This document shows, one piece after another, positions 15,294 to 54,670 of a DNA stretch of 64,000 nt. The notes under the pieces were generated by a model. That model did not search any database and was not told the origin of the DNA. It saw only the letters and a list, made by a program, of their open reading frames with translations. The position numbers were made by a program, and so were the translations under genes. Source of the stretch: an uncultured candidate division Zixibacteria bacterium. Lineage in GTDB: Bacteria; Zixibacteria; MSB-5A5; GN15; FEB-12. Position 1 is the stretch's first letter. Each line of letters opens with the position of its first letter. The stretch covers positions 227,737 to 291,736 of the forward strand of contig CAWDXE010000005.1 in NCBI GenBank assembly GCA_963806185.1, in the 5' to 3' direction.

Positions 15294-18214
15294 ATGAAAC
15301 GTAACATGCTACTGCCAGGCTTGCTGGTCTTGCTCTTGCTGCCAGCGTGGCTTTCGGCCGCTACCGTCGGCCGAATTACTGGAGTGGTGACTGACGCATC
15401 CACGAAGGAGCCGCTGGTCGGCGTCTCCGTGCAGGTGGTCGGTACCAACATGGGAAGCATGACGGATGAGAACGGGCGTTACAACATTCAGAACGTCCCC
15501 GTCGGCACCTACACGATCCGCTACTCGTCGGTCGGTTTCGGGAATGTCGAAATCAGCAACGTTGAAGTGTCGGCCGATCTGGTCAGCTACTCCAACGCCG
15601 GGCTGAGTTCGCAGGCCACCGACATCGGCAAAACGATCACGGTCCAGGCGGAAACCCCGCTGGTCATCAAAGACCGCACGTCGCAGATCAACGTCATGAA
15701 GCGGGACGAGATTCTCGCGTTACCGACGCGCGGCTTTGAACAGGTGGTGGGCATACAGACGGGCGTGGTGAAAGTCACGCCAAACCCGACCAACCGCCTG
15801 CGCGGCGCGCGCGAATCGACGACTACCGGCGAGTTAAACGTCCGCGGCGGCCGGCCGTCGGAAGTCGCCTACTACGTCGATGGATTCTCACAGCAGGATC
15901 CGCTCTCGGGTAACTCGACCGCGAACATCAACAACAACGCCATTCAGGAAGTATCACTCTTGTCGGGCGGTTTCCCGGCGGAATACGGCAACGTCGGATC
16001 GGCGATCGTCAATACGATCACCAATTCCGGCTCGCAGGTATTCCACGGCAACGTCGAAGCCGTCACCGACAACGTGACGTCCCGCAATTTCGATCAGAAC
16101 TACTATTCCGCCGATCTGGGCGGACCGATTCCGGGATTGGAGAAGGCGACCTTCTTTGGTTCCGCCGAACGGCGCTGGCTGGGCGACCGCCAACCGTCGT
16201 CGACGACGCATGATTTCCTGCCGGGTTCACCCGACGGGCTGCCGCACAACTCTCTCGATGGCTGGTCGTGGCAGGGCAAGATCGATTACAGCCTGACGCA
16301 GAACGCCAAGCTGCAATTGTCCACCAACGGTTCAAACGACAAGTGGAGCGAATACCGGCACGAATATCTGCTGGACGCCGGCCACATGCCGTGGTATCAC
16401 GATCAGAATATGGGCCTCAACGGCAAGCTGACCCATACGCTGAACGCGAAGACGTTTTACAACCTGAGCGCCTCCTGGTTCAAGACGGAGCGGTTCCGCG
16501 GCGACGGTATGCTCCGAGAAGATCTCTGGGCCTATGGTCGGCCGACCGGCAAACCCGCGTCTTGACCTGACGTCGCTGTTCTGGAACCCCGATGATCCTG
16601 TCAACCGCCCGACGCGAATCGACATGGTGGTCGACGGCGTCTCCGCAGCATTCTCGATCATGGATACGATCGGCGACGGCCACGGTGACGAAGGCTCGGT
16701 CTGGGATGACTATCTCAAGCGCAAGTCTCGCTACATCGGCTTCAAGGGTGACATCACCAGCGAAGTCTCCGACGTGCACACGGTGCAAGGCCGGTTTCGA
16801 ATTCCAGCGCCATACGCTCCGGTTCTACCAGCACCTGTTCCCGTCGCTGGTTTCGGCAGGACATCGGCGGCAAGGGATTTCAGGATGCCAACCGCTACGG
16901 CTATGACGATATACGGCAATCGAATCGGATAATGAGTCGTTCGAAAACGAGACCAAGCACCCGGTCAATGCGGCCGGCTATGCATCAGGATCGCGTTGAA
17001 TGGCGCGGTTTGATTATCAACGCCGGTCTGCGCTTTGACTATTTCGACTACAAGCAGAAACGGCTCAAAAGCCTGACCAATCCATTCGATCCGGATGGCG
17101 AGGGCGCGTCCAATCCGACTCTCGACCGTGCTCGACGCCAGCGACTTTGAGCCTTCGAAGAAATTCACCGCGCTTGTCGCCCGCGTCTGGGTATCGGCTT
17201 CCCGGTGTCGGACAAGACGCAGCTGCACCTGAATTACGGCAAATTCTACCAGCGCCCGGACCTTATTCGCCTATATGTCGGATATGACTTCTTCGCATAC
17301 AAGGTGCAAGACGGGCGGCTACTTCTTCCCGATCGGGAATCCGAATCTCGAGCCGGAAAGATTACCCAGTACGAAATCGGTTTCTCGCACCAACTGGGCG
17401 AGAACACGTCGCTCGACGTCAACGCCTTCTACAAGGATATGATCGGCCTCGTGCAGGTATATAACCAGTCGGCCGACGCCGCGGTCGTATTCGTTGTATC
17501 GCAACTCCGACTACGGCACGTCGAAGGGCCTGGAATTCAATCTCCACATGCGGCGTACCAACAACATCGAATTGGATGTCAAGTACACGCTGGCGTATGC
17601 CACCGGCACCGGTTCGTACGCCAACACGCAGCAGAATATTGCCTGGACCAACTCCCAGGTCCCCAAGCAGGCCGCACCGCTCGATTACGACCAGCGCCAC
17701 AATCTGATCGGCGTAGTCGATTATCGACTCGGCCGCCAGCAGGGACCACGCATCGGCGATAAGTATCCGCTGGAGAACTTCGGTATCAACATTGTTTCCC
17801 AGGTTGGCAGCGGTCTGCCGTATTCGCCGCAGAATCTCTACAACGAAGTGACCCTGGCGGCGGTTACGCCGACACCTTCGGCGGCGCGCAACAGCGCCTA
17901 CGGCCCATGGACGATCAATATCGATCTCAAGGCGGAGAAGATCATTCAACTTCAAGGCTACAAGATCACTCCGTACCTGTGGGTCAAGAACCTGCTCGAT
18001 CGGGACAACGTGACTTACGTCTATGAAGGCACTGGTCGCCCGAACACCACCGGCTGGCTGGCTACATCCGAGGGTCAAGCAGTTCGTAGTCGATCAAGCC
18101 GGACCGGATTATACTGGCTTGAACGGCGAACAGAAATACAAACTGAAAGAACAGAACCCGACGAACTACTCCAACCCGCGGATGTTCATGTTCGGCGTTC
18201 GGTTCTCGTTCTGA
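15294..18214 (+). CDS. TonB-dependent receptor (several frameshifts, probably sequencing errors)
   Basis: Signal peptide, GRITGVVTD N-domain and plug (NVRGGR..EVAYYVDG, GGFPAEYG). Barrel fragments continue across frames (NAGLRFDYFD, LNYGKFYQ, YEIGF, KNLLD) and end in GVRFSF at 18214. Confidence 0.85.
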
Positions 18215-18258
18215 TCGAGAGAAAAATAGGAATTCGTATGGATACGAGGACAGATTTC

Positions 18259-21200
18259 ATGAAACAAAAATTATGGATAGGCGTGATCCTGTCGCTTTTG
18301 GCCGTAGCGGCTCTGGCTGCACCGCCCCAACAGCGGGGCAAAGCGCCCAAGAGTGCAGCCTCTTTGGACACCGACACGTGGATCGATGCCAATCGTCTTC
18401 TCATGTTTGTGACCAACGACGGCTCGTTCGCGTCAGATCTGGGAGGAATCCTGGGTAAGACTGACGGTCTGTATTATCCCTTCACTTCTTTGGCCGACAT
18501 CCGGTTCAAGAAGAACGACAACTCGGTGGTTTACGCATCTGGCCTCTGGCTGGGCGCAAAGGATTCGGTCACCGGTGACATATTGATCACCGTCGCCGAA
18601 TACTCCGAGGAAAATGTGCCGGGCCCGATGGTTGACGGTGAGGCCAGCCCGGATGATCCGTTCTACTACGTGTACAAAATCAGGTCCGACAGCACAGGTG
18701 ACAACGCCAACCGAGATTACCGAGACTGGCCGGACACACTCGGAGCTCCGGTCGACATCGACCGGAAAGCCGGCGCTGATTGGTAACCAGATGCTCTGGG
18801 CGGTATACAACGACGCCGATCCGGCCAACACACCAACAAAGCCGGTTCGACCGAACCGCTCGGTGTCGAAATCCAGCAAACCGACCATCGGCTTCAGCCC
18901 GCCAAGGTGCGTTCGGCGACATTTTGTTCGTCAAGTTCAAGATCAAGAACAAAGGCTCTAAGACCCTGGACAGTATGTTCGTGTCGCTCTGGGCGGATCC
19001 TGATCTGGGCGACGCTTCCGACGATTTGGTCGGTTGCGATACACTCCTGTCGCTCGGATACTGCTACAACGGAGATGCGGTTGACGGCCAATACGGTTCG
19101 CGTCCACCCGCGGTCGGTTACGACTTCTTCCAGGGGCCGATGGATTCAACCGGCATCGAGACTGACACAGCGCTCATGTGGGGACAGAAGTGGCCGGGAA
19201 ATCGTAAACCTGCCGATGTCGTCATTCAACAAGTACATCAACGGAACCGATCCGCAGAACTTCAACCAGACCTACAATTATATGCGGGGTCTGCGGACGG
19301 CAAGCGGTGATCCTGGCGACCAACGGACGAAATTCGCCGTGCCGGGCGATCCGGTTACCGGCGGGTGATCTGGACGCCAATCCTGCTGACCGTCGCTTTA
19401 TGTTGACCACTGGACCGTTCAAGTTCCGTCCGGGTGACAGCACTGAAATCGTGGCCGGCATCATGGCTCAGCAGGGCGCCGAACCGCCTCCAGTCTCTGA
19501 CTGCCTTGAAAGAGTTGGATGACATTGCTCAGAAGACCTACAACAATAACTTCGTCGTCGTGAAACCGCCGGCGATCCGGTGGTAACGGTGACCAACCAG
19601 AACGAGGAGATCGTCCTGTCCTGGACGGACACTTCGGAAATCGAACACGGCGACTTCCCGTTTGAAGGATACACGGTTCTTCAGGGAAAACGAGTCGGTT
19701 CTACGATCGAATACACCGAAATCCCGCAACAGACGTATGACCTAGTCAACGGGTACAAGATCATTCTGGATTCCATTCCGGACACCGACGCGCAGCAGCC
19801 GCTCTTGAAAGTGCAGAAGAAGGGAAACGACCGCGGGGTCAAGAGGTATTTTTCCACGCGCACCGACTACAATACCGGCGAGCCGCTTTCCAATTTGAGC
19901 GAATACTTCTATCGGATCGAAGCCTATTCGTACAATCCTTCCGCACCGGCCGGGGACAGAATTCAGCCGTCGAAAGGCAAGAATGTAACGGCCGTGCCAC
20001 AGGGACCACCGGCTAACTATGATCCGAGCTATGTAGGTACTGACGTGTTCCCGGTCACGCACGTCGGCAATTCCGACGGGACAATTGTGCCAACCGTCAT
20101 GGATCCCACTCTCCTGACCGGGCACGACTACCAGATCAGAATAGACACCATCCCTGAATTCGACACGGCAATCGTCGACGTCGAGGATTCTGTCATAACA
20201 ATTGCAGATTCGACAGTCCGAGGTGACACGGTCCTTTACTTCAACCGTGACAGCTCGGTAACACATCCCGAAACCACAATTACCACCACTACGGTATGGG
20301 AACTTCGGGACATGACTCTGGACTCAGCATTATTTGATACGATGCTGAATCAGAGCGGTGACGATGAGTATCCAATCGTCGACGGGTTCCTCATGAAGGT
20401 TCTGGGTCCGCCACCGGGATTGAAGGGCGGCGAGCCGGGCGATGCCAATGAGGGATGGGCAGTATCAAGCGGCGCTCGTCGATTCACGCAGATCGGCGGA
20501 GACGGCCTCGCTATGGAAGGATTCCGCGCAACTGTTGGCTGGGCCAACGAACCGTCGTCTTTCTTTGGTTCTCGCGGTCTATCGTCGGTTGGTGCGGACA
20601 GGCTTCGCAATATTGAGCTGCGACTGGCAGTGACTGATTCAACCGGCGTGTTTGATCCCGGCGATCCGAATGTATCCTATGCCTATCGCTGGGGCCGTAA
20701 CTTCCAGGCCGCCGCCGCCAAGCCGGAGTTCGCGCCATTTATCATCAATACCGGTGCCAGCTACGATTACCAGGACTATGTACAGAGTATGCCGCTGGCT
20801 GTGTATGACATTGAAGCTGACCCGCCGCGCCGGCTGGCCGTTGGCTTCCTCGAAAACAACGTTGCCGACGGTGAAGTGAACGGCAGATACTGGCCACCGT
20901 ACAACGCCGCTGCCAACGGCGACAACGTTGACGCGGGCGGGCCTCGCGAATGGCTGTTCATATTCGACGCCGATTATACCGGCGCGACGCCTGATGCGGG
21001 CCTGCAGGTGAACGTCCTCGGTGCTGTCACTCCTATAATGTATCACGCCACGTGGACGCGGCGCGATGACGTCGGCTGGTCCCCGGGCGGAGTGGTCGAT
21101 GGCTTCGAGCTCTTTGCCAACCATGTCCTGCTGCCCGCTGATACGTTCTCGTTTACGGCTGCGCCGTGGACGAAAACAAACGCCGGCGGCAGCGTGAGAT

Positions 21201-21514
21201 TGGATGATGTCCGGGCCGTACCTAACCCGTACTACCTCTACTCCTCCTACGACAACAGCACCAACTCGCGGCAGATTCGCTTCTCGAATCTTCCGGAGAG
21301 GTGCACCATCAGTATCTACACGATCACTGGTGATCTGGTCTCCAAGGTGGAGAAGAACTCGACCGATTCGTGGGCGTACTGGGATGTCCAGACCGATAAT
21401 GGGATCCCCGTGGCGTCAGGTATATATATCTGGGTGGTCGACGCTCCCGGAATTGGACAGAAAATCGGCAAGATGGCTGTGTTCACCGAAGTGGAACAGC
21501 TTCCGCAGTACTAG
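18259..21514 (+). CDS. Large exported protein with T9SS/FlgD-type C-terminal sorting domain (frameshifted near 18.8-19.6 kb)
   Basis: Signal peptide MKQKLW...ALA; WADPDLGDASDDLVGCD and GYDFFQGP segments; C-terminal VPNPY...IRFSNLP..CTISIYTITGDLV...WD...VASGIYIW domain. Confidence 0.75.
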
Positions 21515-22606: not shown

Positions 22607-25600
22607 TCAAATCTCAGCTGCCGATTTCTTGCCGAAGAGCGAATACAGGACCGGCAGGATAATCAGCGTCAGGGCGGTCGACGTGAGAATGCCGCCAACG
22701 ACTACGGTGGCCAGCGGCCTCTGAACCTCCGCGCCGAAGCCACCGGAGAACGCCATCGGGCAGAATCCAATGGCCGCCACCAGGGCCGTCATGAGAACGG
22801 GACGAAGCCTCACCATCGCTGCCTCGGAAATGGCCGAGTCCAAGTCACGGCCGTCGGAACGACTGCGTTTGATCTGCGATACCAGGACCAGGCCGTTGAG
22901 GACGGCAAGCCCGGAAAGCGTGATGAAGCCGACTCCGGCGGAGATGGAAAATGGCAGCCCGCGCGCCATGAGAGCAGCCATGCCGCCGATGGCGGCAAGC
23001 GGAACGCCGCTGAAGATGAGCAGCGCGTCCCGCAATGAACCATAGGTCATGTACAGTAGCCCCATAATCAGAACCAGCGCCAGTGGCACAACTATTGCCA
23101 GCCGCAACTGGGCTCGTTCCATGTTTTGGAATTGCCCGCCGAATTGCACGTAGTAACCGGGCTCAAATTTGACGTCGCGGTCGATCCGCCCGCGCAGTTC
23201 GTCGACAAACGACCCGACGTCGCGCCCACGGACATTGCACTGTACCACGGCCCGTCGTTTCCCCCACTCCCGCGTAATGGTAGCGTACCCTTCCGTGAGC
23301 TGCGGCTGAGCGATCCGATCGAGCGTGACTATGGCTCCGTCATTCCCACGGAGCGGTATCAATTCAATGTCCTCGGGCGACGAGGCCCAGGCGCTGTCTA
23401 ATTTCAGCACGAGGTCAAACCGTCGCTGCCCTTCAAATACTTCACCGACCGTCGTACCCCCCAGCGCCTGGATATACGATAGCACTTCGTTGGCCGGAAT
23501 GCCGAATCGCGCCGATTCGACCCGATCCACCGCCAGCCGTAATTGCGGCTGGCCGGTCATCTGCTCCACTGAGACGTCGGCACTGCCTCGGACCTGCGAG
23601 GCAAGCTGGGCGATCTCGTCGGCCTTTACGCGAAGCATTTCAAGATCATCCCCGAACACTTTGATGCCCACGTCGGAGCGAATCCCGGCGATCATCTCGT
23701 TCACGCGCATCTCAATCGGCTGAATGTACAGCTTGTTCATACCGGGCAGGTCGACCAACTCCCGATCGATAGCCGCCACCAGTTCATCCTGGCTCCGGGC
23801 TTTCTTCCACGCCTCGCGCGGGGTAAGGGTGATGAACATATCGGTCAGTTCGATTCCCATCGGGTCGGTCGAGAGCTCGGCCGTCCCCGTGCGCGACCAG
23901 ATGTCGGCTATTTCATCCGGGAATTGCTTCAGCAGCAGTTGTTCCACCCTGGTGCTGTAGTCCACTGATTGCGGCAGTGACACGCCCGCCAGCCGAACCG
24001 TGTTGATGACGATGGTTCCTTCATTCAGCCGGGGAATGAACTCCTTGCCGATTCGCGAGAACATTACAGCGCCAATCAGCATGAGTACGATCGAAGCAAT
24101 GCTTATCGCCGCCCGGTTGCGGAGCGCCCAGTGCAAAGCCGGCCGGTAGGCGCGCTGTGCCAAGCGAACCAGAAACGGCTCACGGTCCGAGCTAGGTTTC
24201 TTTAGGAATGTGGCCACGAGAGCAGGAATGACCGTAAACGACAGAATCAGTGCTCCGATGAGCACGAAAACGACGGTCAGCGCCATCGGGCGGAACATCT
24301 TCCCTTCCACGCCTTCAAGCGTCAGGATCGGGAGATAAACGAGGATGATGATCAACTCACCGAACAACGTCGGTTTGCGTACCTCCAGGATAGCATCGCG
24401 AATGATCTCCAGTCGATTGCGCCCGGATTTGTCGTGCGAGAGGTGCCTCAGGGAATTCTCCACCTGAATGACGGCGTTGTCGACCGCCAGACCGAAGTCG
24501 ATCGCCCCCAGGCTCATCAGACTACCGACAATCCCTACCCTCGTCATGGCGTCGAAAGCGAAGAGCATTGACAGCGGAATGGAAGAGGCCGCGATAAGCC
24601 CGGCGCGAAAATTCCCCATGAAGAGGAACAGAATCGCCACTACCAGAGCGGCACCGTACAGCAGGTTATCACGGACGGTATGCAGGATCCTGTCCACCAA
24701 TTCGGTGCGTACGTAAACCGGGCGCAACTCAACATTCTCGGGCAGGGATTTCTTCACCTCTTCGAGTCTGGCCGCCAGCCTCGCGGCTACGTCATGCGAA
24801 TTCTCCCCGGTGATCATGAAACCAAGTCCCAGCACAACCTCGCCCAAACCGCCGGCGGTCGAGGCGCCGCGACGGATTTCGTGACCGACGACCACCTCGG
24901 CGACATCTCTCACCTGAAGGGGCAATCCGCCGCGAGTACCGATTACCAGGGCCTCAATCTCATCGCGCGTCGTGACCTGTCCCAATCCCTGAACCACCGT
25001 CTGTTCGCCGCCGCGCACCATGGTCCCGCCGGAAACGTTTCCCAGACTCTCGCGCAAGGATTCGGCGACGTCATGGAGACTCAGATTGAATTGCACAAGC
25101 CGGTTTGGATCGACGAGAATCTGAAATTGCTTTTCGAAGCCGCCCCAGGTGTTGATCTCGGCCACACCCGCCACGGCCTGCAATTGCGGTTTGATGATCC
25201 ATTCCTGCACGGTTCGCGCTTCGGTCGGATCGGCTGATCTGGCGATGACCAGGTAATGGAAGATTTCGCCGAGTCCGGTCGAAACCGGCCCCAGTTCCGG
25301 TCGAGGCAGACCGTCGGGCAATTGCACGCTGACAAGCCGCTCCGTCACCTGCTGGCGAGCCTGATAGACGTCGATCTTATCATCGAATATGAGCGTGACG
25401 TTGCTCAGCCCGAATTTCGAGATGGACCGAACTTCCTGAAGTCCGGTGAGACCGGACAATTCACGCTCAATCGGGTAGGTGATTTGGCGTTCGATTTCCT
25501 CGGGGGCCCATCCGACCGCCTCGGCGTTGACCTGAACCATGACGGGTGTCGTATCGGGAAAGGCGTCAAACGGCAGGCGCAGGAACGCCAGCGTGCCGAC

Positions 25601-25675
25601 AACGACCAGCAATCCGGCCAGCGTCAATACGAAATACCTTCGCCGGATGGCGAATTCGACAATGAATGTTAACAT
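22607..25675 (-). CDS. CusA/CzcA-family heavy-metal RND permease
   Basis: DAFPD, GPVSTGLGEI, MSLGAIDFG, FRPMA, RLRPVLMTA and EVQRPLATVVVGG motifs. Confidence 0.95.
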   Translation of the reverse strand: MLTFIVEFAIRRRYFVLTLAGLLVVVGTLAFLRLPFDAFPDTTPVMVQVNAEAVGWAPEEIERQITYPIERELSGLTGLQEVRSISKFGLSNVTLIFDDKIDVYQARQQVTERLVSVQLPDGLPRPELGPVSTGLGEIFHYLVIARSADPTEARTVQEWIIKPQLQAVAGVAEINTWGGFEKQFQILVDPNRLVQFNLSLHDVAESLRESLGNVSGGTMVRGGEQTVVQGLGQVTTRDEIEALVIGTRGGLPLQVRDVAEVVVGHEIRRGASTAGGLGEVVLGLGFMITGENSHDVAARLAARLEEVKKSLPENVELRPVYVRTELVDRILHTVRDNLLYGAALVVAILFLFMGNFRAGLIAASSIPLSMLFAFDAMTRVGIVGSLMSLGAIDFGLAVDNAVIQVENSLRHLSHDKSGRNRLEIIRDAILEVRKPTLFGELIIILVYLPILTLEGVEGKMFRPMALTVVFVLIGALILSFTVIPALVATFLKKPSSDREPFLVRLAQRAYRPALHWALRNRAAISIASIVLMLIGAVMFSRIGKEFIPRLNEGTIVINTVRLAGVSLPQSVDYSTRVEQLLLKQFPDEIADIWSRTGTAELSTDPMGIELTDMFITLTPREAWKKARSQDELVAAIDRELVDLPGMNKLYIQPIEMRVNEMIAGIRSDVGIKVFGDDLEMLRVKADEIAQLASQVRGSADVSVEQMTGQPQLRLAVDRVESARFGIPANEVLSYIQALGGTTVGEVFEGQRRFDLVLKLDSAWASSPEDIELIPLRGNDGAIVTLDRIAQPQLTEGYATITREWGKRRAVVQCNVRGRDVGSFVDELRGRIDRDVKFEPGYYVQFGGQFQNMERAQLRLAIVVPLALVLIMGLLYMTYGSLRDALLIFSGVPLAAIGGMAALMARGLPFSISAGVGFITLSGLAVLNGLVLVSQIKRSRSDGRDLDSAISEAAMVRLRPVLMTALVAAIGFCPMAFSGGFGAEVQRPLATVVVGGILTSTALTLIILPVLYSLFGKKSAAEI

Positions 25676-25685
25676 GCTCCCCCGC

Positions 25686-27158
25686 CTACTTCGCATCAAC
25701 TTCGCAACAACCGGCGCCAAGGCTCGACTTGCGAAGTTCCGTTTTCAGCAGATAGCTGCCGTTGACCACGATCGATTCGCCGACTTCGACTCCGCTCACC
25801 ACCTGATAATACCGGTTATCACCGCGTGCCAAGGTGACCTTGCGCGGGCGAAACCGGTCGGCCGCTTCCTGCACGAAGACGACATTGCAGCACCCCTCCC
25901 ATTGCACGGCATCTTTCGGCACAAGTACCGGCGTAAAGGATGGATTGACCTCGATGGTCATGCGCCCGAAATTGTTGGCGCGAAGATTGCGCGATGGCTG
26001 GGCGAGGCGGGCACGGACGACCCCGGTGCGGGTGGCCTCGTCGAGATACTGAGCGACCCAGATCACTTCGCCGGCCACGTTGCCGAGCGTGCCGTCACTG
26101 GAAAACGACACCGATTGCCCGACATGTATATCACTCAATTCGTGCTCTCGCATGTGGGCTTCGAGCCAGAGTGCCTTCGGATCACCTGTCAGGGCAAGGG
26201 TAGCACCGGCTTCAAGCTGTTCCCCCAGAGGGGCGCGGCGTTCCAACAGAGAGCCGGTGACTGACGAACGCACAATCCAGCGCGGCGATACATCATTCGT
26301 CTCGGCCAGCCGATTGATGTCCTCGCGAGTCATGCCGGCCGAGCGCAGCAACCCTTCGCTATTAAGCACTCTTGATCGGGATACGTCCGCGACTGCTGCC
26401 AATGATTCATATTCGGCCCGACTGATATGACCGCGTGCGACCAGCGAGTCGGCTCGACGGCGATTGTTTTCCGCCACGACGCCGTCGGCGCGTGCTTCAA
26501 GAAAATTGGCCTGCAGAGTGGCCATCTCCGGCGATTGGAGTTCGGCGATTGCTTGTCCTTCGGCAAGAAGGTCTCCCGGTTCGGCGAGCCAGTGCATGAC
26601 GGTGGCGTCAATGGTGCTCGAGATGATGACCAGTTTGGTTTCGTCAAAACGTGTTTCGGCCGGAGCGGAGATCATGGTCGCAGCCGACCCGCGAATCGCC
26701 GCTTCAACAGTCAAGCCGGCGCGGGAAGATGTTTCTACCGAGGCAAATTGAATCGTAGCATTGTTCGTGGCGCAATCTTCGGCATTGGGATGCAGAAAGA
26801 TGCTGGTCACAATCGGCTTCGCCTCGATGACGATCTCCGGTTCCTGCATGAAACGAAGGCGCGGATTACAGACACGGCAATGCGATTCCGGCAGGTTGTG
26901 CTCCCCGCACCAGTCGTCTCGATCCTGAAAAGCCGTCACCAGTTCCGGATGACAGCGCGTACATTGCGATTCCGGTACGCGATGTTCGGCGCACCAGTCG
27001 TTCATATCCATCGGAACGGTCTGCGAGGCGTGTTCGGCGTCTATGCCCGGCTGCTCGAGCGCCTTGCGGGCGTCGCCGGTCAGGCTGATGATGCCGATGC
27101 CCAGCAGGACACCGACGATGAGCATCAAGAGCAACGGAATGTAATTTCGTTTGTTCAC
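25686..27158 (-). CDS. RND periplasmic adaptor (CzcB-like) with N-terminal Cys/His repeats
   Basis: MFP motifs (LQSPE, TRT..VRA, VPKDAV, VVNGSYLL); two WCxEHxxPESxCxxCxP repeats; likely GTG start at 27158 after GGGAG. Confidence 0.88.
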   Translation of the reverse strand: MNKRNYIPLLLMLIVGVLLGIGIISLTGDARKALEQPGIDAEHASQTVPMDMNDWCAEHRVPESQCTRCHPELVTAFQDRDDWCGEHNLPESHCRVCNPRLRFMQEPEIVIEAKPIVTSIFLHPNAEDCATNNATIQFASVETSSRAGLTVEAAIRGSAATMISAPAETRFDETKLVIISSTIDATVMHWLAEPGDLLAEGQAIAELQSPEMATLQANFLEARADGVVAENNRRRADSLVARGHISRAEYESLAAVADVSRSRVLNSEGLLRSAGMTREDINRLAETNDVSPRWIVRSSVTGSLLERRAPLGEQLEAGATLALTGDPKALWLEAHMREHELSDIHVGQSVSFSSDGTLGNVAGEVIWVAQYLDEATRTGVVRARLAQPSRNLRANNFGRMTIEVNPSFTPVLVPKDAVQWEGCCNVVFVQEAADRFRPRKVTLARGDNRYYQVVSGVEVGESIVVNGSYLLKTELRKSSLGAGCCEVDAK

Positions 27159-27272
27159 AGTATTCTCCCGACCGGACGTACCGGCCATCAATTTGGCAAG
27201 TCAGCCTCGCGGAATGAGGCAACTTGAATTCTTCTGACGTTGATTAGGCGCGCCTTGACGTGGCGCTGGAAT

Positions 27273-27575
27273 TCAACAGGAGACGGTTTTGGGAGGACGA
27301 TCGAGGGAACGTTCGAGGTCGGCGAAGATGACGAATTGCGAAAGCAAGTCGGTTGTCCCGACAATCGGATCCTCGGCCTGAAGAATGGATTGCACACCGG
27401 CCCAACTGACAAGTTGTACGCCATGACAGCAGACAAAGTCGGTGCAACAGCTACCGTCCGCGTCGGGGCACCCGGCACAACAGGACCCCGGTTCATCCTG
27501 CAACGGAGCAGCCATAGCCACCGCGCCGGCTATCAGCAGGAGGGCGGTAATAAGTATGGTGGCAGCTCTTTTCAT
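27273..27575 (-). CDS. Small secreted Cys-rich leader protein ending in DRPPK
   Basis: Signal peptide, CCAGC/CC/CC cluster and C-terminal LDRPPK; first gene of the metal-efflux operon. Confidence 0.65.
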   Translation of the reverse strand: MKRAATILITALLLIAGAVAMAAPLQDEPGSCCAGCPDADGSCCTDFVCCHGVQLVSWAGVQSILQAEDPIVGTTDLLSQFVIFADLERSLDRPPKTVSC

Positions 27576-28559: not shown

Positions 28560-29306
28560 TTACGGCTTCTGCCCGCCGTCGAGCATTTTCAGCATCTGAG
28601 TTGCGGGGCGAAATTCCGGATTCACTTTGAGGCAGGTCTGCAGAGCCTCTTTGGCTTTCGCCTTGTCACCGGAGTCAGCGTAGACGCGGGCAAGAGAAAA
28701 CCAGACGCCGGCCGAATTCGGATACTGCTTTGTATTGAATTCCAGGATTTTCAGCGCCCCGGCATTGTCCTTGGCGGCGATATCGGAACCGACACCGGAC
28801 AGGACATAGTCGGCGAAGTCAAACGTATGCCGCCCGTAGTATTTTTCGTGCAACGTATTGTAGGTGCTGAGGACGGAGTCCGCTCCACCGTCGGTATACG
28901 CCTCCATCAGGACATCCTGGATCAGTTTCGGCACGGGCTGGCCGCGATGGCAGGTCACGCACTCGACGCGGGTCATGTGGGCGGTGTCGCCGACGGCTTT
29001 GGGCAGTGCCTCACCGTTAATGAACTGCACCATTTTCATCATTTCGCGCGCGACTTTCTTCATGCTGTTCGAGTCGGAGGCGAAATCGTCTTGTTCCTCA
29101 CCGTTGGGACCCTTGGTCTGGGCGTGGCAGTAATCGCAGTGGACGCCGAGTCCGCCGGAGAAGCTGCGCATGATGCCGATGAGCTGTTGTTTGGCGATCG
29201 TGCTGTCGAGTATTTTCAGATTGGTGAATTTCTCAGGCGGCTGTGCCACCGATAGTGCGGCTGCCCAGACAACCGCGACCAGGGTGAGCATGAGAATTTT
29301 GCGCAT
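28560..29306 (-). CDS. Diheme c-type cytochrome (reaction-centre-cytochrome-like family) with C-terminal TPR
   Basis: Signal peptide; NLKIL; two CxxCH motifs (CDYCH, CVTCH); K.VAREMMKM; TPR-like tail. Confidence 0.85.
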   Translation of the reverse strand: MRKILMLTLVAVVWAAALSVAQPPEKFTNLKILDSTIAKQQLIGIMRSFSGGLGVHCDYCHAQTKGPNGEEQDDFASDSNSMKKVAREMMKMVQFINGEALPKAVGDTAHMTRVECVTCHRGQPVPKLIQDVLMEAYTDGGADSVLSTYNTLHEKYYGRHTFDFADYVLSGVGSDIAAKDNAGALKILEFNTKQYPNSAGVWFSLARVYADSGDKAKAKEALQTCLKVNPEFRPATQMLKMLDGGQKP

Positions 29307-29859
29307 GGAAGCCTCATTCGTGAAGATGGTTAGAAGTTGATTGACATTTTCCTTGTACTCTTGGCAAGAAACATCGGCCAATTTAATTCTCGATTCGGTC
29401 GTTGCCAAGCCCATTCTTCAGCATTGAAATCACCCTCCGCGCCGAAGTCTGGACTACCAGGTTGAGTGCATTTTGCGAAGAATCGACCTCAGGTTCAGCC
29501 CGAACTTCGTATCCAGCCACCAGGAATGATTTGCTGATTGCCGACCGGTGGGCCACAGGCAGAGAGCAAAGACAATGACGTGGGCCAATTTCATCTTGTT
29601 GTCCTCCGGAAAAATGACTCTAGACGCATTCAGGGAGAATTTGTTTAGGCCAAAGAAAGTATATTTTCGCCCCCAAAATTTTTGCAGAACAAAGTCAACC
29701 GGTCGTCCGTATCAAATCTGCAACGATTGATTAGCCGCCAATCACACTGGAGGATCACACCTCGTCTGCGTTGAGCAGGCGGCCGGAGGTATGCCCGGCG
29801 CTACGGTGAATCCTGTTCGGAATTGGGCAACGGAGTACGTGTGAGAAGGAGACTGATTA

Positions 29860-32168: not shown

Positions 32169-32200
32169 AAAATGGGAGGTGGCAATCCACCTCCCATTTT
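32169..32200. terminator. Bidirectional intrinsic terminator
   Basis: AAAATGGGAGGTGG-caat-CCACCTCCCATTTT perfect hairpin. Confidence 0.8.
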
Positions 32201-32237: not shown

Positions 32238-32513
32238 CTACTTATGAGCCTCAGCCATGGCACAGCCGCCGGCTGGACACGGTTTGCCGCAGTCGGAGGT
32301 TTTCGCGGCGGTCGTGGCGGTTGCTGTCGTGCCGGTTTGTCCGTTCTTCATTTCGCACTGGCCCGGATTGGTGCACGGATGCGGGCACTTGTCGCATTGA
32401 TCGGGCGATACGCAGGTGCAGTCTTCCGGCATCGCCGTAGACGCTGACTGAACAGAGACAGTCCAGATGATGGCGCTGAGCGCCACAAGGGCAATCAAAA
32501 GAGTCTTTCGCAT
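32238..32513 (-). CDS. Small secreted Cys-rich (metallothionein-like) protein
   Basis: 91 aa; signal peptide MRKTLLIALVALSAIIW..QSA; nine Cys (CTC, CDKC, CGKPC and others); AGAGGA SD; terminator follows. Confidence 0.7.
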   Translation of the reverse strand: MRKTLLIALVALSAIIWTVSVQSASTAMPEDCTCVSPDQCDKCPHPCTNPGQCEMKNGQTGTTATATTAAKTSDCGKPCPAGGCAMAEAHK

Positions 32514-32592
32514 AAGGCAATTCCTCTACCGTTAGGCGTTACTTGATTGTCTGCGATCGATATTTCGATCGCACGTGAATTCTTCGGAGTAA

Positions 32593-33069
32593 CTATCCCA
32601 GCGGCGGAGCGCGAGATGGCGGAGGGCTTTTCGAAAGCGAACCGAGAGGCAACAGCGCACGATCTTCAACCGTGCAAAGAATTTGAGGAGTATCGATAGT
32701 TGGTGAGGCCGGCTGGATCGCGAACGACCCGCGAGCACCGTCATCCAGCGAAAGACGCGATCCTTCTACTCCGGGCTGCGTCGAGACCAAAGAACAGCAC
32801 CGGGGACTCGACGGCTGCCCCGGCTTTGACTTGACTGGACAATTTGTGTGCGCGACCGCCAGGCAGGGGACTGTGGCGCAGCCGGTGGGAATCTCATGGC
32901 CATTGGCGGCGCAAACATTGGCGCAAGCCTCGATCCGGGAGAGACACTGCTCTATCTGCGCATCGGATTTCGGTACAACGAGATAGAGCGGCTGGGTAGC
33001 TCCGGAATAGACCGCCGCCAGGACGATAATAAGTTTCATCGATTGGACGGCTGATTTCAAGACACGCAT
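32593..33069 (-). CDS. Cys-rich leader protein with C-terminal RAPP motif
   Basis: Hydrophobic N-terminus, multiple Cys, C-terminus SPPPSRAPPLG; GGAG SD upstream. Confidence 0.6.
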   Translation of the reverse strand: MRVLKSAVQSMKLIIVLAAVYSGATQPLYLVVPKSDAQIEQCLSRIEACANVCAANGHEIPTGCATVPCLAVAHTNCPVKSKPGQPSSPRCCSLVSTQPGVEGSRLSLDDGARGSFAIQPASPTIDTPQILCTVEDRALLPLGSLSKSPPPSRAPPLG

Positions 33070-33218
33070 TACCGGCTACTCCGACATCTATCATTTTGGA
33101 TCTGAAGTGTGTTTGGACTCAGATTATACATAAAGCTCGTTCGCCGGTTCCGTATGGATACCACGACCACCGGTCAGTTTCGGGCTTGCGGTGGTCAGAG
33201 TCGCGAGCAATCGCTTGT

Positions 33219-36200
33219 TCAGGATTCGGCGACGACCGGTTCAGTGACCGGCGATTCGACCACCACTTTCTGAGTCGACAGATAGGTATACAGTGCCGGA
33301 ATGACGAACAGCGTAAGGCCAAGTGAAAAGAGCAGGCCACCGATAATCACGATACCCATCGAAATGCGGCTTTGTGCCGCCGCACCCAGAGCCAGGGCAA
33401 TCGGCAGTACGCCGAAAACGGTGGCCAGGCTGGTCATGACAATGGGGCGAAATCGTTGAATCGCGGCGTCGAGCACCGCCTCACGAAGCGCCAAACCCTG
33501 CGCTTTCCGCTGGTTGGCGAATTCGACGATCAGAATGCCGTTCTTGGTGACAATGCCCACCAGCGCAATGATGCCAATCTGGCTGAAGATGTTCATCGTC
33601 TGTCCAAAAATCCAGAGCGACAGAATCGCTCCCGCCAGCGCCAGCGGCACGGTGAACATGATGATCAGCGGGTCGCGGAAACTCTCGAACTGGGCGGACA
33701 AAATCAGGTACACCAGAATAAGCGCCAGCACAAAAGCAAACAGCAGTGTATTGGAGCTCTCAGCATACTCCTTGGACGTTCCGGCCAGACTGGTCGTGAA
33801 TGATTCGTCGAGCACTGTCCCGGCGATCCTGTCCATTTCTTCGATTCCCTGTCCCAGCGTGAAGCCGGGCGCGGGCTGTGCCGCCACGGTCGCGGCGACG
33901 TAACGATTGTACCGGTACAGTTGCTGCGGGCTGCTCCGATATGACAGATTCACGACGTTGTCGAGCTGAATCAGTTCATCGCGATTATTGCGCACATAGA
34001 TGGAACTCAGGTCGAGCGGTTCGTCGCGATTGGCCCGGTTGGCCTGCGCGATGACCGAGTATTGCTTCCGTCGAAGATGAAATAGCCGTACCGCTGTCCG
34101 CTGAAATAGAGCTGAAGCGTCTCGGCGATATCGCGCACCGTGATACCGAGCGCGCGCGCCCGGTCGCGATCTATCTGCACGGTCAGTTCCGGCTTATTGA
34201 ACTTAAGATCCAGGTCGACGGTCGAAAAGACCGGGCTGTTCTGCGCTTCGTCCATGAACGGCGGGATAACGTCTTTGAGTCGTTCGAAGGTGGGGGCCTG
34301 CACGACATACTGCACCGGCAGACCGCGCCCGCGCTGGCCGCCGATGGTCTGCTCCTGAGTGACAAAGGCGCGGGCAAAGGAGTACTTGCCGCAGGGTCGC
34401 CGTAAGCGCATTGGCAATCTCCTGCTGCGTGCGCCGGCGTTCATCAGGCGGAACCAGCGTGATCCGAACAAAACCGTTATTCACGCCGCCCGACGAGCCG
34501 AACCCCGACGCCGTCACCGACATGATGTTGTCCCGCTCCGGAAGGGAATCGGCCATCGCAATCAGCTTGCCCATGTAGTCATTCATCGCCTCATACGATG
34601 TTCCCTCCGGGGCCGTGGCCTGGATGACCAGGCGGCTCCGATCTTCCATAGGCGCCAGTTCCGATGGAATCAGCTTGCCGATACCGAGAATGATCGCGAC
34701 CGACACGGCCATGACGACCAGCGCCAGCCAGCGCCGCTGCAGGAAGAAGACCAGCCAGCCGTTGATACGCGCCGATAATCCGATTGAACGTTCGTTCGCT
34801 CCACATGAACAACTTGTTCTCATGCGTGCTCTTGTGGAGCATGTGAGCGCTCATCATCGGCGTCAGCGTCAGCGAAACGAACGCTGAGATGAGGACTGCC
34901 CCGGCTACAACAATGCCGAATTCACGGAACAGCCGCCCGGTCAGTCCCTGGAGAAAGATGATCGGCAGAAAGACCGCGGCCAGCGTGATCGTGGTGGACA
35001 CGATGGCGAAGAAGATTTCCTTGGCGCCTCGGTGTCCCGCGTCGATCGGACGCATGCCCCCTTCAATCTTCGCGTAGATATTCTCCAGCACCACAATGGC
35101 GTCGTCGACGACAATGCCGGTGGACAGCACGATTCCCAGCAAGGTCAGGATATTGATCGTGAAATTCGACACGTACATGATGAAAAACGCGCCGATAAGC
35201 GAAATCGGAATGGCCACCATCGGAATGATGGTCGTCCGCCAGTGGCGCAGGAAAAGGAAAATCACCAGGAGGACAAGCAGAAACGCGATGGCCAGCGTCT
35301 CGACCACCTCGACAATCGCCCGACGGATATTGGCGGTGGTGTCCATCGCGATGCTGTATTGCAGATCCTTCGGAAGATCACGCTTGATCTGTTCGAGGCG
35401 CTGGTAGAACTCGATCGGCTATGGCGATGTGATTGGAGCCCGGCTGAGGAATGACCACCACGCCGACCATGGGCACGTTGCCGTTGCCGCGCAGAATGGT
35501 GCGCTCATTTTCCGGCGCCAGCACCGCCTGACCGATATCGCGGAGCTTGACCACTGATCCTTCAGATTCGTTGATGATCAAATCGTTGAATTCCTCGGCG
35601 GTGGTGAGACGCCCGAATGTCCGGATGGAGAGCTCGGTGGCATACCCTTCAATACGCCCCGACGGCAGCTCCACATTTTCGCGATTCAAAGCATCGCGCA
35701 CGTCGAGTGGTGTAAGTCCGTACGCGGCCAGCTTGCCGGGATCGATCTGCAGCTTCATGGCGTATTTCTTTTCGCCCCAGATGCGAATCTCGCTAATTCC
35801 CGGAATGGTCTGGAGTCGCTCTTTGAAAACGTCATTGGCCAGCGCCGACAGCTCGAGCAACGACAAGCGATCGCTGCGAATCGTGACCGACAAAATCGGA
35901 TTGGCGTCGGCATCCGCTTTGGAGACCACCGGCGGATCGACGTCGGCCGGCAGACTGCGGATGGAACGGGAGACGCGATCGCGCACGTCGTTTGCCGCAT
36001 TCTCCATATCGACACCCAGCTCAAACTCGACCGTGATGTTACTCCGCCCGTCACTGCTGATGGAAGTCAGGGAGCGAATCCCCGCGATGCCATTGATTGA
36101 TTCTTCGAGCGGTTCGGTAATCTGCGATTCGATGACGTCGGCGTTGGCGCCGGTGTAATTGACCGATACGGTCACCACCGGCGGGTCGACGCTGGGGTAT

Positions 36201-36307
36201 TCGCGAACCCCGAGAAAAATGAAGCCAATCGCACCGAACAGAAGGATAAGGAGTGAAAGGACGATAGAGAGGACCGGGCGATTTATGAAAATCGACGAAA
36301 TATTCAC
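33219..36307 (-). CDS. HAE1-type RND permease (frameshifted; fragments 35378-36307, 34591-35346, 34203-34823, 34007-34471, 33219-33995)
   Basis: FINRPV, REYPSVDPP, GIVVDDAIVVLEN, LTLTPM, AQFESF, KNGILIVEFAN and RFRPIVMT appear in order across frames. Confidence 0.88.
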
Positions 36308-52224: not shown

Positions 52225-54670
52225 ATGTCTTTGGAACGACAGAAAATCGAAACCGTCTATCTCGAAGAGGAGATGAAGTCGTCCTACCTCGATTACTCCA
52301 TGTCGGTCATCACCAACCGCGCGCTGCCGGATATTCGCGACGGCATGAAGCCGTCGAACCGGCGCATCATGGTCGCGATGAACGACCTGAATCTTCAGCC
52401 GGGACGGCCACATCGTAAGTGCGCGAAGATCTGCGGCGATACGTCGGGTAACTACCACCCGCACGGCGAGCAGGTGGTCTACCCGACGCTCGTGCGCATG
52501 GCGCAGGATTTCAACATGCGGTATCCGCTGGTCGACGGCCAGGGGAACTTCGGCAGCATCGACGGCGACGACGCCGCGGCGATGCGATACACCGAAGCGC
52601 GCCTCACGCCGATCGCGGTGGAAATGCTCGCCGATCTCGATAAAGAGACGGTCGACTTCATGGCGAACTACGACGGCACGCTGCAGGAGCCGAGAGTGCT
52701 TGCCGGGAAAATTCCCGAATCTGCTCTGCAACGGATCCTCGGGTATCGCGGTCGGTATGGCGACCAATATTCCGCCGCACAATCTGAATGAAATCGGCAA
52801 AGCGATCCTGAAAGTGATCGACACACCCGACTGCACCAACGACGATCTGATTCGGCTGGTGCCGGGGCCGGATTTTCCGACCGGCGGCATTATCAACGGT
52901 CGCGAAGGGATTCGCGAAGCGTACCGCACGGGCAAGGGGCACATTCAGGTTCGCGCCAAAGCGGTGGTCGAGCACATGCGCAACGGCAAGGAAGCGATTG
53001 TCGTCAACGAAATCCCCTATCAGGTGAACAAGTCGAATCTGCTGGAGAAGATCGCCGACCTGGTGCGCGACAAGAAGATCGAGGGTATCACGCGATCTTG
53101 CGCGACGAATCCGACCGCGACGGGATGCGGATTGTCATCGAACTGCAAGCGCGACGTACCAGACCGATATCGTGCTCAACCAGCTCTTCCAGCACACGAC
53201 GATGCAGACGACCTTCTCGGTGATCATGCTCGGTCTGGACAACGGCGTGCCGAAACTCGCTGACGCTGAAGCAGCTGATCGAGGCGTTTGTCGAGCACCG
53301 TCATGAAGTAGTGACGCGCCGGACGCAGTACGATCTGCGCAAGGCCGAAGAGCGGGCGCACATTCTCGAAGGGTACAAGATCGCGCTGGACAATATCGAC
53401 GCGGTGATCGCGCTGATCAGGAAGTCGAAAGATGTTCCGACCGCGCGCGAAGGGTTGATGAAGCAGTTTCAAGCTGTCCGAGATTCAGGCCAACGCCATT
53501 CTCGAGATGCGGCTGCAGCGCCTGACCGGGCTGGAACGTCAGAAGATCGAAGACGAATACCGGGAGCTGCTCAAGAAGATTGAGGAGTATCGGGCGATCC
53601 TGGCGTCGCGCGCAGCTGCGCATGCAGATCATCAAGGACGAAACGCTGGAACTGATGAAGAAGTACGGCGACGAGCGCCGGACGCAGATTCAGGACGCGG
53701 CGGAGGAACTGACGGTCGAGGATCTGATCGCCGAAGAGGAGATGGTGATCACGATTTCGCACGCCGGATATGTCAAGCGGCTCGCCGATTTCGCAGTACC
53801 GCAAGCAGCAGCGGGGCGGGCGAGGGCGTGATCGGCATCGAAACGAAGGAAGATGATTTCGCCGAGCACCTGTTCATTGCGTCGACGCACGACTACATCC
53901 TGTTCTTCTCGATCGCGCGGCCGATGCTACTGGGTGAAGGTGCACGAGATCCCGGTCGGCGGCAAGATGGCCAAGGGGAAACCGATCGTCAATATGGTGC
54001 TCAGATGGGCAAAGAGGAGACCGATTGCGTCGTTCTGCCGCGTGCGCGAGTTCTCGGCCGAGAAATTCATCGTGATGGCGACCCGCAACGGAATGATCAA
54101 GAAGACCACGCTCGACGCGTTCGCCAACCCGCGCAAGGCGGGCGTGAACGCGATGGATATCTCCGACAAGGATGACGCGCTGATCGGCGCGGGGGTTACC
54201 GACGGCACGTTTGAAATCGTGTTGGCGACCCGCCAGGGGATGGCGATTCGCTTCCCCGAGGAAAAAGTGCGCGCCATGGGCCGCACTGCCTACGGCGTGC
54301 AGCGGGATCGATCTGGCCGAGGGCGACTATTGCATCGGCATGGTGGTCGTGAAGCGCGACTCGTCGCTGCTGGTCGTGACCGAGAACGGGTACGGCAAGC
54401 GGACATCGATCGATGATTACCGGATCACCAACCGTGGCGGCAAGGGGGTCATCAACGTGAAGACCTCGGAGCGCAACGGCGAGGTGGTGACGATCAAGGA
54501 AGTGCTCGATCAGGACGAGTTGATTCTGATCACGAAGAAGGGCATCGCCAACCGTCAGGCGGTGAAGCCAGATCAAGGTGATCGGCCGCAACACGCAGGG
54601 TGTGCGGTTGATTAACCTGAGCGACGGCGACCTGGTGACGGATGTCGCGCGGGTGGTGTCGGAAGAGTAG
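52225..54670 (+). CDS. gyrA: DNA gyrase subunit A (many apparent frameshifts)
   Basis: [47 protein letters not shown] and GPDFPTG motifs; GyrA-box-like QQRGGRG; pinwheel repeats (MGR, RGGKG); stop at 54670. Confidence 0.93.

Follow-up and report, generated by a model that had tools for sequence, protein, structure and literature searches.

Two short open reading frames (ORFs) on the minus strand make up a compact unit in the DNA analysed here, the order being gene 1, a 79-nt gap, gene 2 and a 14-bp terminator stem. Gene 1 ends in the motif RAPP, followed by two further residues and the stop codon, gene 2 encodes a small cysteine-rich peptide with a signal-like start, and the codons of the predicted arrest site in gene 1 are complementary to the 5' region of gene 2. 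The interpretation of this arrangement that we prefer, with a confidence that falls a little short of even, is that it represents a translational switch similar to those of CutF and CruR, in which metal-prolonged arrest of a ribosome on gene 1 would free the Shine-Dalgarno (SD) sequence of gene 2 and so give rise to an exported thiol chelator. Gene 1 itself is likely, by analogy, to work as CutF and CruR do.

In this scheme gene 1 would encode a cis-acting sensor that is exported co-translationally, and the ribosome translating it would arrest with two proline codons in its P and A sites. A cluster of cysteines (residues 42-92) would then lie outside the exit tunnel, probably across the membrane, where binding of metal would lengthen the arrest. 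Melting of a predicted helix of 17 bp by the stalled ribosome would place the SD core within a weak hairpin's loop, whereupon gene 2 would be translated and its product exported to the periplasm, there to sequester soft metal ions (Cu(I), Zn or Cd, for example) by means of nine Cys together with Met and His residues arranged in two clusters. Sensor, switch and output would fit in about 900 nt.

The two genes and their setting

The window (by which is meant the whole stretch of DNA that was analysed, 64,000 nt) corresponds to positions 227737-291736 on contig C5 of a 3.6-Mb genome, assembled in eight contigs and 82% complete. Both of the ORFs that an earlier, sequence-only reading of this DNA had picked out are present on the minus strand (Table 1), where they are flanked by an AcrB-type RND permease gene, ending at 33219, and a DUF5916 gene that converges on them and ends at 32139. 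A perfect TATAAT ahead of gene 1, a hexamer found genome-wide at 0.07 per kb and strand, is possibly the -10 element of a promoter of its own, without a good sigma-70 -35 element; a promoter scan listed no site for the unit. Immediately after the stop codon of the permease there is a GC-rich inverted repeat lacking a T tract (33165-33195, minus strand), which may separate the unit from the operon upstream. At the other end, the strong terminator claimed in the sequence-only reading stands up well to comparison with shuffled sequences (Table 1), and is likely to be bidirectional, serving gene 2 as well as the DUF5916 gene that faces it. A scan for consensus terminators did not list this stem (32200-32169), and the sole match in an Rfam search was a spurious microRNA on the terminator.

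Table 1 Positions of the features discussed in the text, numbered within the window unless a contig is given.
Feature	Position	Strand	Remarks
Gene 1 (P0001), 158-aa leader ORF	32593..33069	-	Hydrophobic N-terminus, 9 Cys, 2 His, C-terminal PPPS-RAPP-LG
RAPP codons, predicted arrest site	32602..32613	-	CruR toeprints taken as the model for the arrest position (PMC12992588)
Possible -10 element, perfect TATAAT	33123..33128	-	54 nt upstream of gene 1
Long helix, 5' arm (anti-SD side), predicted	32588..32612	-	RAPP-LG codons, stop and 5 nt beyond
Long helix, 3' arm, predicted	32524..32543	-	Ends in GAG of the gene 2 SD
Perfect 9-bp hairpin	32552..32573	-	Sits inside the long-helix loop; pair probabilities 0.83-1.0
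Gene 2 SD-like AGAGGA	32522..32527	-	8 nt before ATG
Gene 2 (P0002), 91-aa peptide	32238..32513	-	Signal-like residues 1-24/27, 9 Cys
14-bp perfect stem, T-rich flanks on both sides	32169..32200	.	z = -4.63; 0/200 shuffles as stable
Second leader, 100 aa, signal-like, 8 Cys, ends DRPP-KTVSC	27273-27575	-	Ahead of 25686-27191 and 22607-25720
Third leader, CxxC, His, ends RSPP	C6:200446-200775		Before 402-aa protein, ZnuA and ABC-3 permease

Elsewhere in the window several long genes are spread over more than one reading frame, namely the RND permease (33219-36307, minus strand, in five pieces), a gyrA-like gene (52225-54416, plus strand) and a TonB-like gene with its neighbour (15294-21514, plus strand); these split frames are probably indel errors of a long-read assembly. 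The gene at 28560-29414 (minus strand) encodes an exported protein in which two CxxCH haem motifs are combined with TPR repeats.

The anatomy first described for gene 1 (a hydrophobic N-terminus, many cysteines and a PPPS-RAPP-LG end) is borne out. Its hydrophobic stretch reaches a Kyte-Doolittle peak of 2.4 near residues 10-23, with a basic start before it, its cysteines lie at positions 42, 49, 53, 64, 69, 77, 91, 92 and 132 (giving CxxxC at 49-53, CC at 91-92 and no CxxC), and RAPP occupies residues 153-156. The full length applies if translation begins at the ATG that has GGAG 9 nt ahead of it; from Met11, which has no SD, the product would be 148 aa long. The signal peptides of both genes are putative, being judged signal-like from hydrophobicity and by inspection.

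As to how unusual such an ending is, gene 1 is the only one of 311 ORFs with a hydrophobic start (80-200 aa, outside long ORFs) to end in R[AG]PP, and without the hydrophobicity filter, the limits of length and position being the same, the count is three among 3439. Within the 2774 called genes of the genome RAPP occurs twice against 12.7 expected and RGPP twice against 10.9, while AAPP is found 30 times (18.9 expected); since AGPP (5, with 16.3 expected) and APPR (5, with 12.7 expected) are also under-represented, the depletion of RAPP and RGPP is not unique. The codon scores of the two ORFs are -0.009 and 0.024, as against 0.065 +/- 0.057 for long genes, and a simple gene caller chose neither of them; both are present as called proteins, with the same lengths, in a public protein collection. 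No Pfam or NCBIfam profile matched either gene. In a comparison of ESM features (recognition 2676) gene 1 came closest to unnamed Bacteroidota proteins 132-158 aa in length (similarity 0.95) and to DUF6769 (0.94), both to be taken as leads only, and the DUF6769 profile (PF20558) did not match gene 1 at E <= 1.

Turning to gene 2, its signal-like start has a hydrophobicity of 3.06 and forms a helix (residues 4-19) in a single-sequence model, and the mature part of 64-67 residues would contain nine Cys (13-14%), three Met, two His and no aromatic residue. The sequence-only reading had reported nine Cys in CxC and CxxC spacing, of which the number is correct and the spacing only partly so: the cysteines (at 32, 34, 40, 43, 47, 53, 75, 79 and 84) form one CxC, one CxxC and two CxxxC. 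They are laid out as a six-Cys cluster with a CxxPxQC repeat, followed by a Thr/Ala linker, a three-Cys cluster and terminal Met and His. Metallothioneins have about 15-30% Cys and few or no aromatic residues, and a metallothionein-like metal-thiolate chelator is a possible description of the gene 2 product, going by its composition and layout; the profile for prokaryotic metallothioneins (PF02069) did not match it. Single-sequence AlphaFold models, with pLDDT values of 51 (gene 2) and 39, were too poor to be used for a fold search, and an ESM search with gene 2 gave a best similarity of 0.85, again a lead only. Two other identities for gene 2 were considered and rejected: it is not a fragment of a long gene, given the terminator 37 nt past its stop codon and the convergent gene at 32139, nor a precursor of a modified peptide (RiPP), an enzyme gene being absent within the unit.

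The RNA between the two genes

The perfect 9-bp hairpin to which the sequence-only reading drew attention does exist (there are 754 such 9-bp perfect inverted repeats in the genome, or 0.21 per kb), but it is rejected as the switch itself, as the SD of gene 2 lies outside it and is left uncovered. The hairpin is only the inner loop of a longer, imperfect helix of 17 bp (predicted between 32612-32588 and 32543-32524), the final pairs of which occupy the GAG of that SD. For the duplex between arrest codons and SD a value of -21.0 kcal/mol was obtained, which was equalled by 37 of 2000 shuffles, by 33 of 1000 in a second run, and by 16 of 2000 when the shuffles kept the SD. The helix is thus modestly non-random, exceeding chance to a modest extent as does the rarity of RAPP. 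Two results count against any special tuning of the helix: four of the 457 windows along gene 1 form a better pairing than the window over RAPP does, and of 27,648 synonymous codings 19.6% equal the actual one.

The effect of stalling was modelled by blocking those bases that the stalled ribosome would cover. In all 20 of the 20 window settings the predicted cost of opening the SD was either unchanged or lower (by 0-2.8 kcal/mol), and the cost of opening the 30S footprint was lower by 0.2-3.2 kcal/mol, again in 20 of 20. For the stretch from SD to AUG the predicted cost was 5.3-7.0 free versus 5.6-7.1 stalled (5.5 versus 7.1 in another run), being raised or unchanged on stalling because a second, weak structure forms with the coding region of gene 2. 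Pairings with that region also outcompete the long helix when 161 nt are folded, leaving it only about half populated. The gain that stalling is predicted to bring is therefore small, at 0-3 kcal/mol, and negative for SD to AUG. On these models a CutF-type anti-SD upstream of gene 2 is plausible.

Other leaders, rival readings and homologue searches

The genome contains two more proline-ended leaders, one before CzcA-type efflux genes and the other before ZnuAB uptake genes (Table 1). Downstream of the first, the DRPP leader, are genes for a CusB-like adaptor, whose N-terminus carries CxEH/CxxC motifs, and for a CusA/CzcA pump, and a homologue of this leader heads the same operon in a relative (G102); the RNA test applied at ATG 27188 gave no stalling gain, and an alternative GTG at 27158 has a better SD. 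Behind the RSPP leader, the 402-aa protein belongs to no Pfam family. In another relative (G106) a similar gene, of 383 aa, is preceded by a His/Cys leader that has the same SRAPPLG end as gene 1 and no similarity to it beyond this. For these two zinc-type leaders (RSPP and that of G106) the predicted stalling gain is 5-9 kcal/mol, clearly above that for gene 1. The lineage thus seems to employ proline-ended leaders where metal genes are concerned, and the prior for gene 1 is raised accordingly. The genome also encodes a heavy-metal P-type ATPase, as well as rho and a VKOR fusion.

A broader proposition, to be held more tentatively than the switch, is that a Sec-exported, two-cluster metallothionein-like peptide, its synthesis turned on by a metal-sensing arrest leader, would here make up with that leader a two-gene periplasmic metal buffer that operates without a transcription factor, so that three arrest leaders would serve efflux, uptake and chelation respectively.

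It is possible, though in our view unlikely, that the same arrest switch responds to the redox state of the periplasm or to export and folding, disulfides formed in the Cys cluster of the leader pulling the chain and releasing the arrest, and that gene 2 encodes a disulfide-knotted or thiol-buffer peptide. Disulfides are made possible by the VKOR fusion, a protein of 600 aa with a VKOR match over the cut-off and further thioredoxin-like CxxC motifs (L274:1420-3222, on contig C1), the presence of a disulfide pathway having been judged from VKOR alone. Cysteine richness is common among exported proteins of this genome, 60 of the 360 exported-like ones having at least ten Cys; the one other protein matched by gene 2 in a phmmer search was matched in a CxC-containing stretch; and PMC12992588 reports an enrichment of RAPP leaders ahead of DsbA/thioredoxin and sec genes. 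Set against this, the nine Cys of gene 2 cannot all pair within one chain, an odd number that argues against an all-disulfide fold, and a comparison of even Cys counts, which is a crude test, revealed no clear disulfide bias (55% of 360 exported-like versus 53% of 1005 cytoplasmic-like proteins). Gene 2 is, moreover, neither a Sec nor a Dsb component, and the two other leaders of the genome precede metal transporters. As a side observation, the neighbour of the VKOR fusion is a protein that ends in a dockerin-like segment and has numerous cysteine repeats of the GACC type.

The sequence-only reading had suggested looking for homologues in related genomes, and none was returned for gene 1 or gene 2. 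For both genes the query alone came back from a word-indexed search that covered 5.8 billion proteins, within the length ranges 50-160 and 86-277 aa; a metagenome scan with gene 2 had the same outcome. A phmmer search with gene 2 among 1.84 billion representatives gave, as its sole other match, a dockerin-repeat protein (residues 19-56), which was set aside as a mere local CxC/Pro likeness. Gene 2 had no homologue in 101 relatives, and in the phylum set (285 genomes of one class) it had 63 matches at E <= 0.1, of which 28 loci were screened and none contained such a unit. With gene 1, the 201 relatives gave six weak matches, all in unrelated frames, and five named genomes gave no homologue. 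In 196 genomes of another class there were one and four weak matches, of which four had internal stops and the fifth was a shadow frame, while the DNA of the unit had no match longer than 45 nt in 108 genomes of the family.

Pattern searches gave a similar picture. The six-Cys spacing of gene 2 matched nearly always antisense poly-Gln in the 285 genomes, the one candidate being a shadow frame, and a Cys/Pro pattern run against GTDB contigs yielded no small exported ORF among the 80 loci read out of at least 119. A pattern combining RAPP with downstream cysteines, which fixes RAPP two codons before the stop and so misses other arrangements, found only the locus itself and one false match due to TGG in the 285 genomes, and the pairing was absent among the 120 matches listed from metagenomes. 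These 120 do include two typical CxxC/RAPP leaders, on metagenome contigs L337 and L355. Nor was the unit present in the flanking 1.5 kb at the 29 loci of the family with the best DUF5916 orthologues.

A further reading is that there is no working switch for gene 2, the leader being orphaned or decaying, the pairing recent or accidental, or one ORF distorted by assembly errors, with gene 2 an ordinary small secreted protein. We consider this, too, unlikely. In its favour are that both genes are singletons, that the unit is missing at those 29 loci, that the codon scores of both ORFs are weak, that frames are broken nearby (in the RND permease and the gyrA-like gene) and that there is no sequencing run on record against which the bases of the assembly could be checked. 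However, both ORFs are intact and have well-spaced SD-like sites, the hydrophobic start and the RAPP of gene 1 share one frame, a strong terminator closes the unit, and the rarity of RAPP and the helix are both modestly above chance; furthermore, the genome studied is the sole member of its genus among those compared, so that missing homologues are to be expected for fast-evolving leaders.

Comparison with known systems

RAPP and RGPP are avoided in proteomes, with an enrichment at the C-terminal end of small exported proteins, and all seven of the Streptomyces lividans proteins with C-terminal RAPP or RGPP and a same-strand downstream gene that were examined in vitro caused arrest, as did CruR (PMC12992588). 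On E. coli ribosomes six of these seven peptides caused no arrest. The same survey, which is the largest, excluded downstream genes annotated as 'unknown' (PMC12992588). The earlier reading of gene 1 as a RAPP arrest leader is accordingly well supported by analogy, given these seven arrests, the rarity of the motif, the sister leaders and the predicted helix. With ApdA/ApdP and the S. lividans leaders gene 1 has in common that it is a small protein with a putative localisation signal, a terminal RAPP and a same-strand downstream gene; unlike theirs, that downstream gene is neither sec/yidC nor of an annotated class.

In CutF, which has a CxxxC motif, copper prolongs stalling and thereby opens a stem-loop that shields the SD, and 5334 CutF-like proteins are known, with efflux, TonB and PCuAC genes as neighbours (PMC9973294; bioRxiv 10.1101/2025.02.05.636593); the intergenic gaps are mostly under 100 nt (PMC9973294). 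The rules used for such proteins were a length below 150 aa, PP in the last 15 residues, a same-strand gene within 1000 nt and a Sec signal (PMC9973294); gene 1 has both PPP and RAPP in its last 15 residues and a same-strand gene 79 nt away. Like CutF of Rhodobacter capsulatus (cutFOG), it is a small uORF with cysteines and a putative export signal, has CxxxC and a C-terminus rich in proline, and is followed by a short intergenic region with a predicted structure over the SD of the next gene. It differs from CutF in having no detectable homology to it, in its length (158 aa, or 148 from Met11) and nine Cys, and in that its predicted anti-SD falls in the arrest codons themselves, while the targets of CutF (multicopper oxidase, RND pump, TonB receptor, PCuAC chaperone) contrast with a 91-aa Cys-rich peptide here.

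CruR of Bordetella pertussis (Bp2923, DUF2946/PF11162) combines CxxC with RAPP and acts in a Rho-dependent manner, copper switching expression off (PMC9426467). Gene 1 resembles it in that two to three residues separate the C-terminal RAPP from the stop, in its putative export signal and in being first in its unit. Unlike CruR, it has no CxxC, its CxxxC lies 100 residues from RAPP (46 residues for the CxxC of CruR), the gap to the next gene is 79 nt (162 nt at cruR), and gene 2 is not a transporter; the PF11162 profile did not match it at E <= 0.1, and by profile or motif spacing gene 1 is not a DUF2946 member. A CruR-type mode, in which default arrest would shield the transcript from Rho and metal would release the arrest and turn gene 2 off, gene 2 then encoding a peptide for scavenging or storage that is produced when metal is short, strikes us as improbable, the least probable of the readings weighed here: the motif is identical to the RAPP of CruR, rho is present, gene 1 shows a mild excess of C over its final 120 nt (20/15 and 22/14 for C/G per 60 nt), the 9-bp hairpin could act as a polymerase pause and the predicted SD gain is small, but the shorter gap, the lack of CxxC, the occurrence of C>G windows elsewhere in the unit and the existence of the anti-SD helix all speak against it.

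Returning to the preferred reading of a CutF/CruR-like switch that frees the SD of gene 2, arrest-peptide control of metal genes is itself known (CutF, CruR), the targets named being enzymes, chaperones and transporters (PMC9973294, PMC9426467), and none of PMC9426467, PMC12992588 and PMC9973294 uses the word 'metallothionein' in its main text. The claim that an arrest leader paired with an exported metallothionein-like peptide had not been described held in the literature searched, which consisted mostly of open-access main texts. What is new here is that the RAPP codons and stop can, in the models, pair into a helix reaching the SD of the gene downstream. If the reading is true, a metallothionein-like target bearing a signal peptide would belong to an undescribed class of periplasmic chelator, and the unit would offer the smallest system for testing how a nascent chain senses metal across the membrane; it must be remembered that as a singleton the locus makes a weaker test case than conserved examples would.

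Bacterial metallothioneins include MymT as well as the SmtA/BmtA family (PF02069) and PmtA. In Pseudomonas aeruginosa PmtA is found at the cell surface and has no signal peptide (PMC11237414). Like these proteins, the gene 2 product is small and Cys-rich, with a mature part lacking aromatic residues and cysteines clustered in CxC and CxxC motifs. It differs from them in having no match to PF02069, a lower fraction of Cys, a signal-like N-terminus, in contrast to PmtA, and two clusters joined by a Thr/Ala linker.
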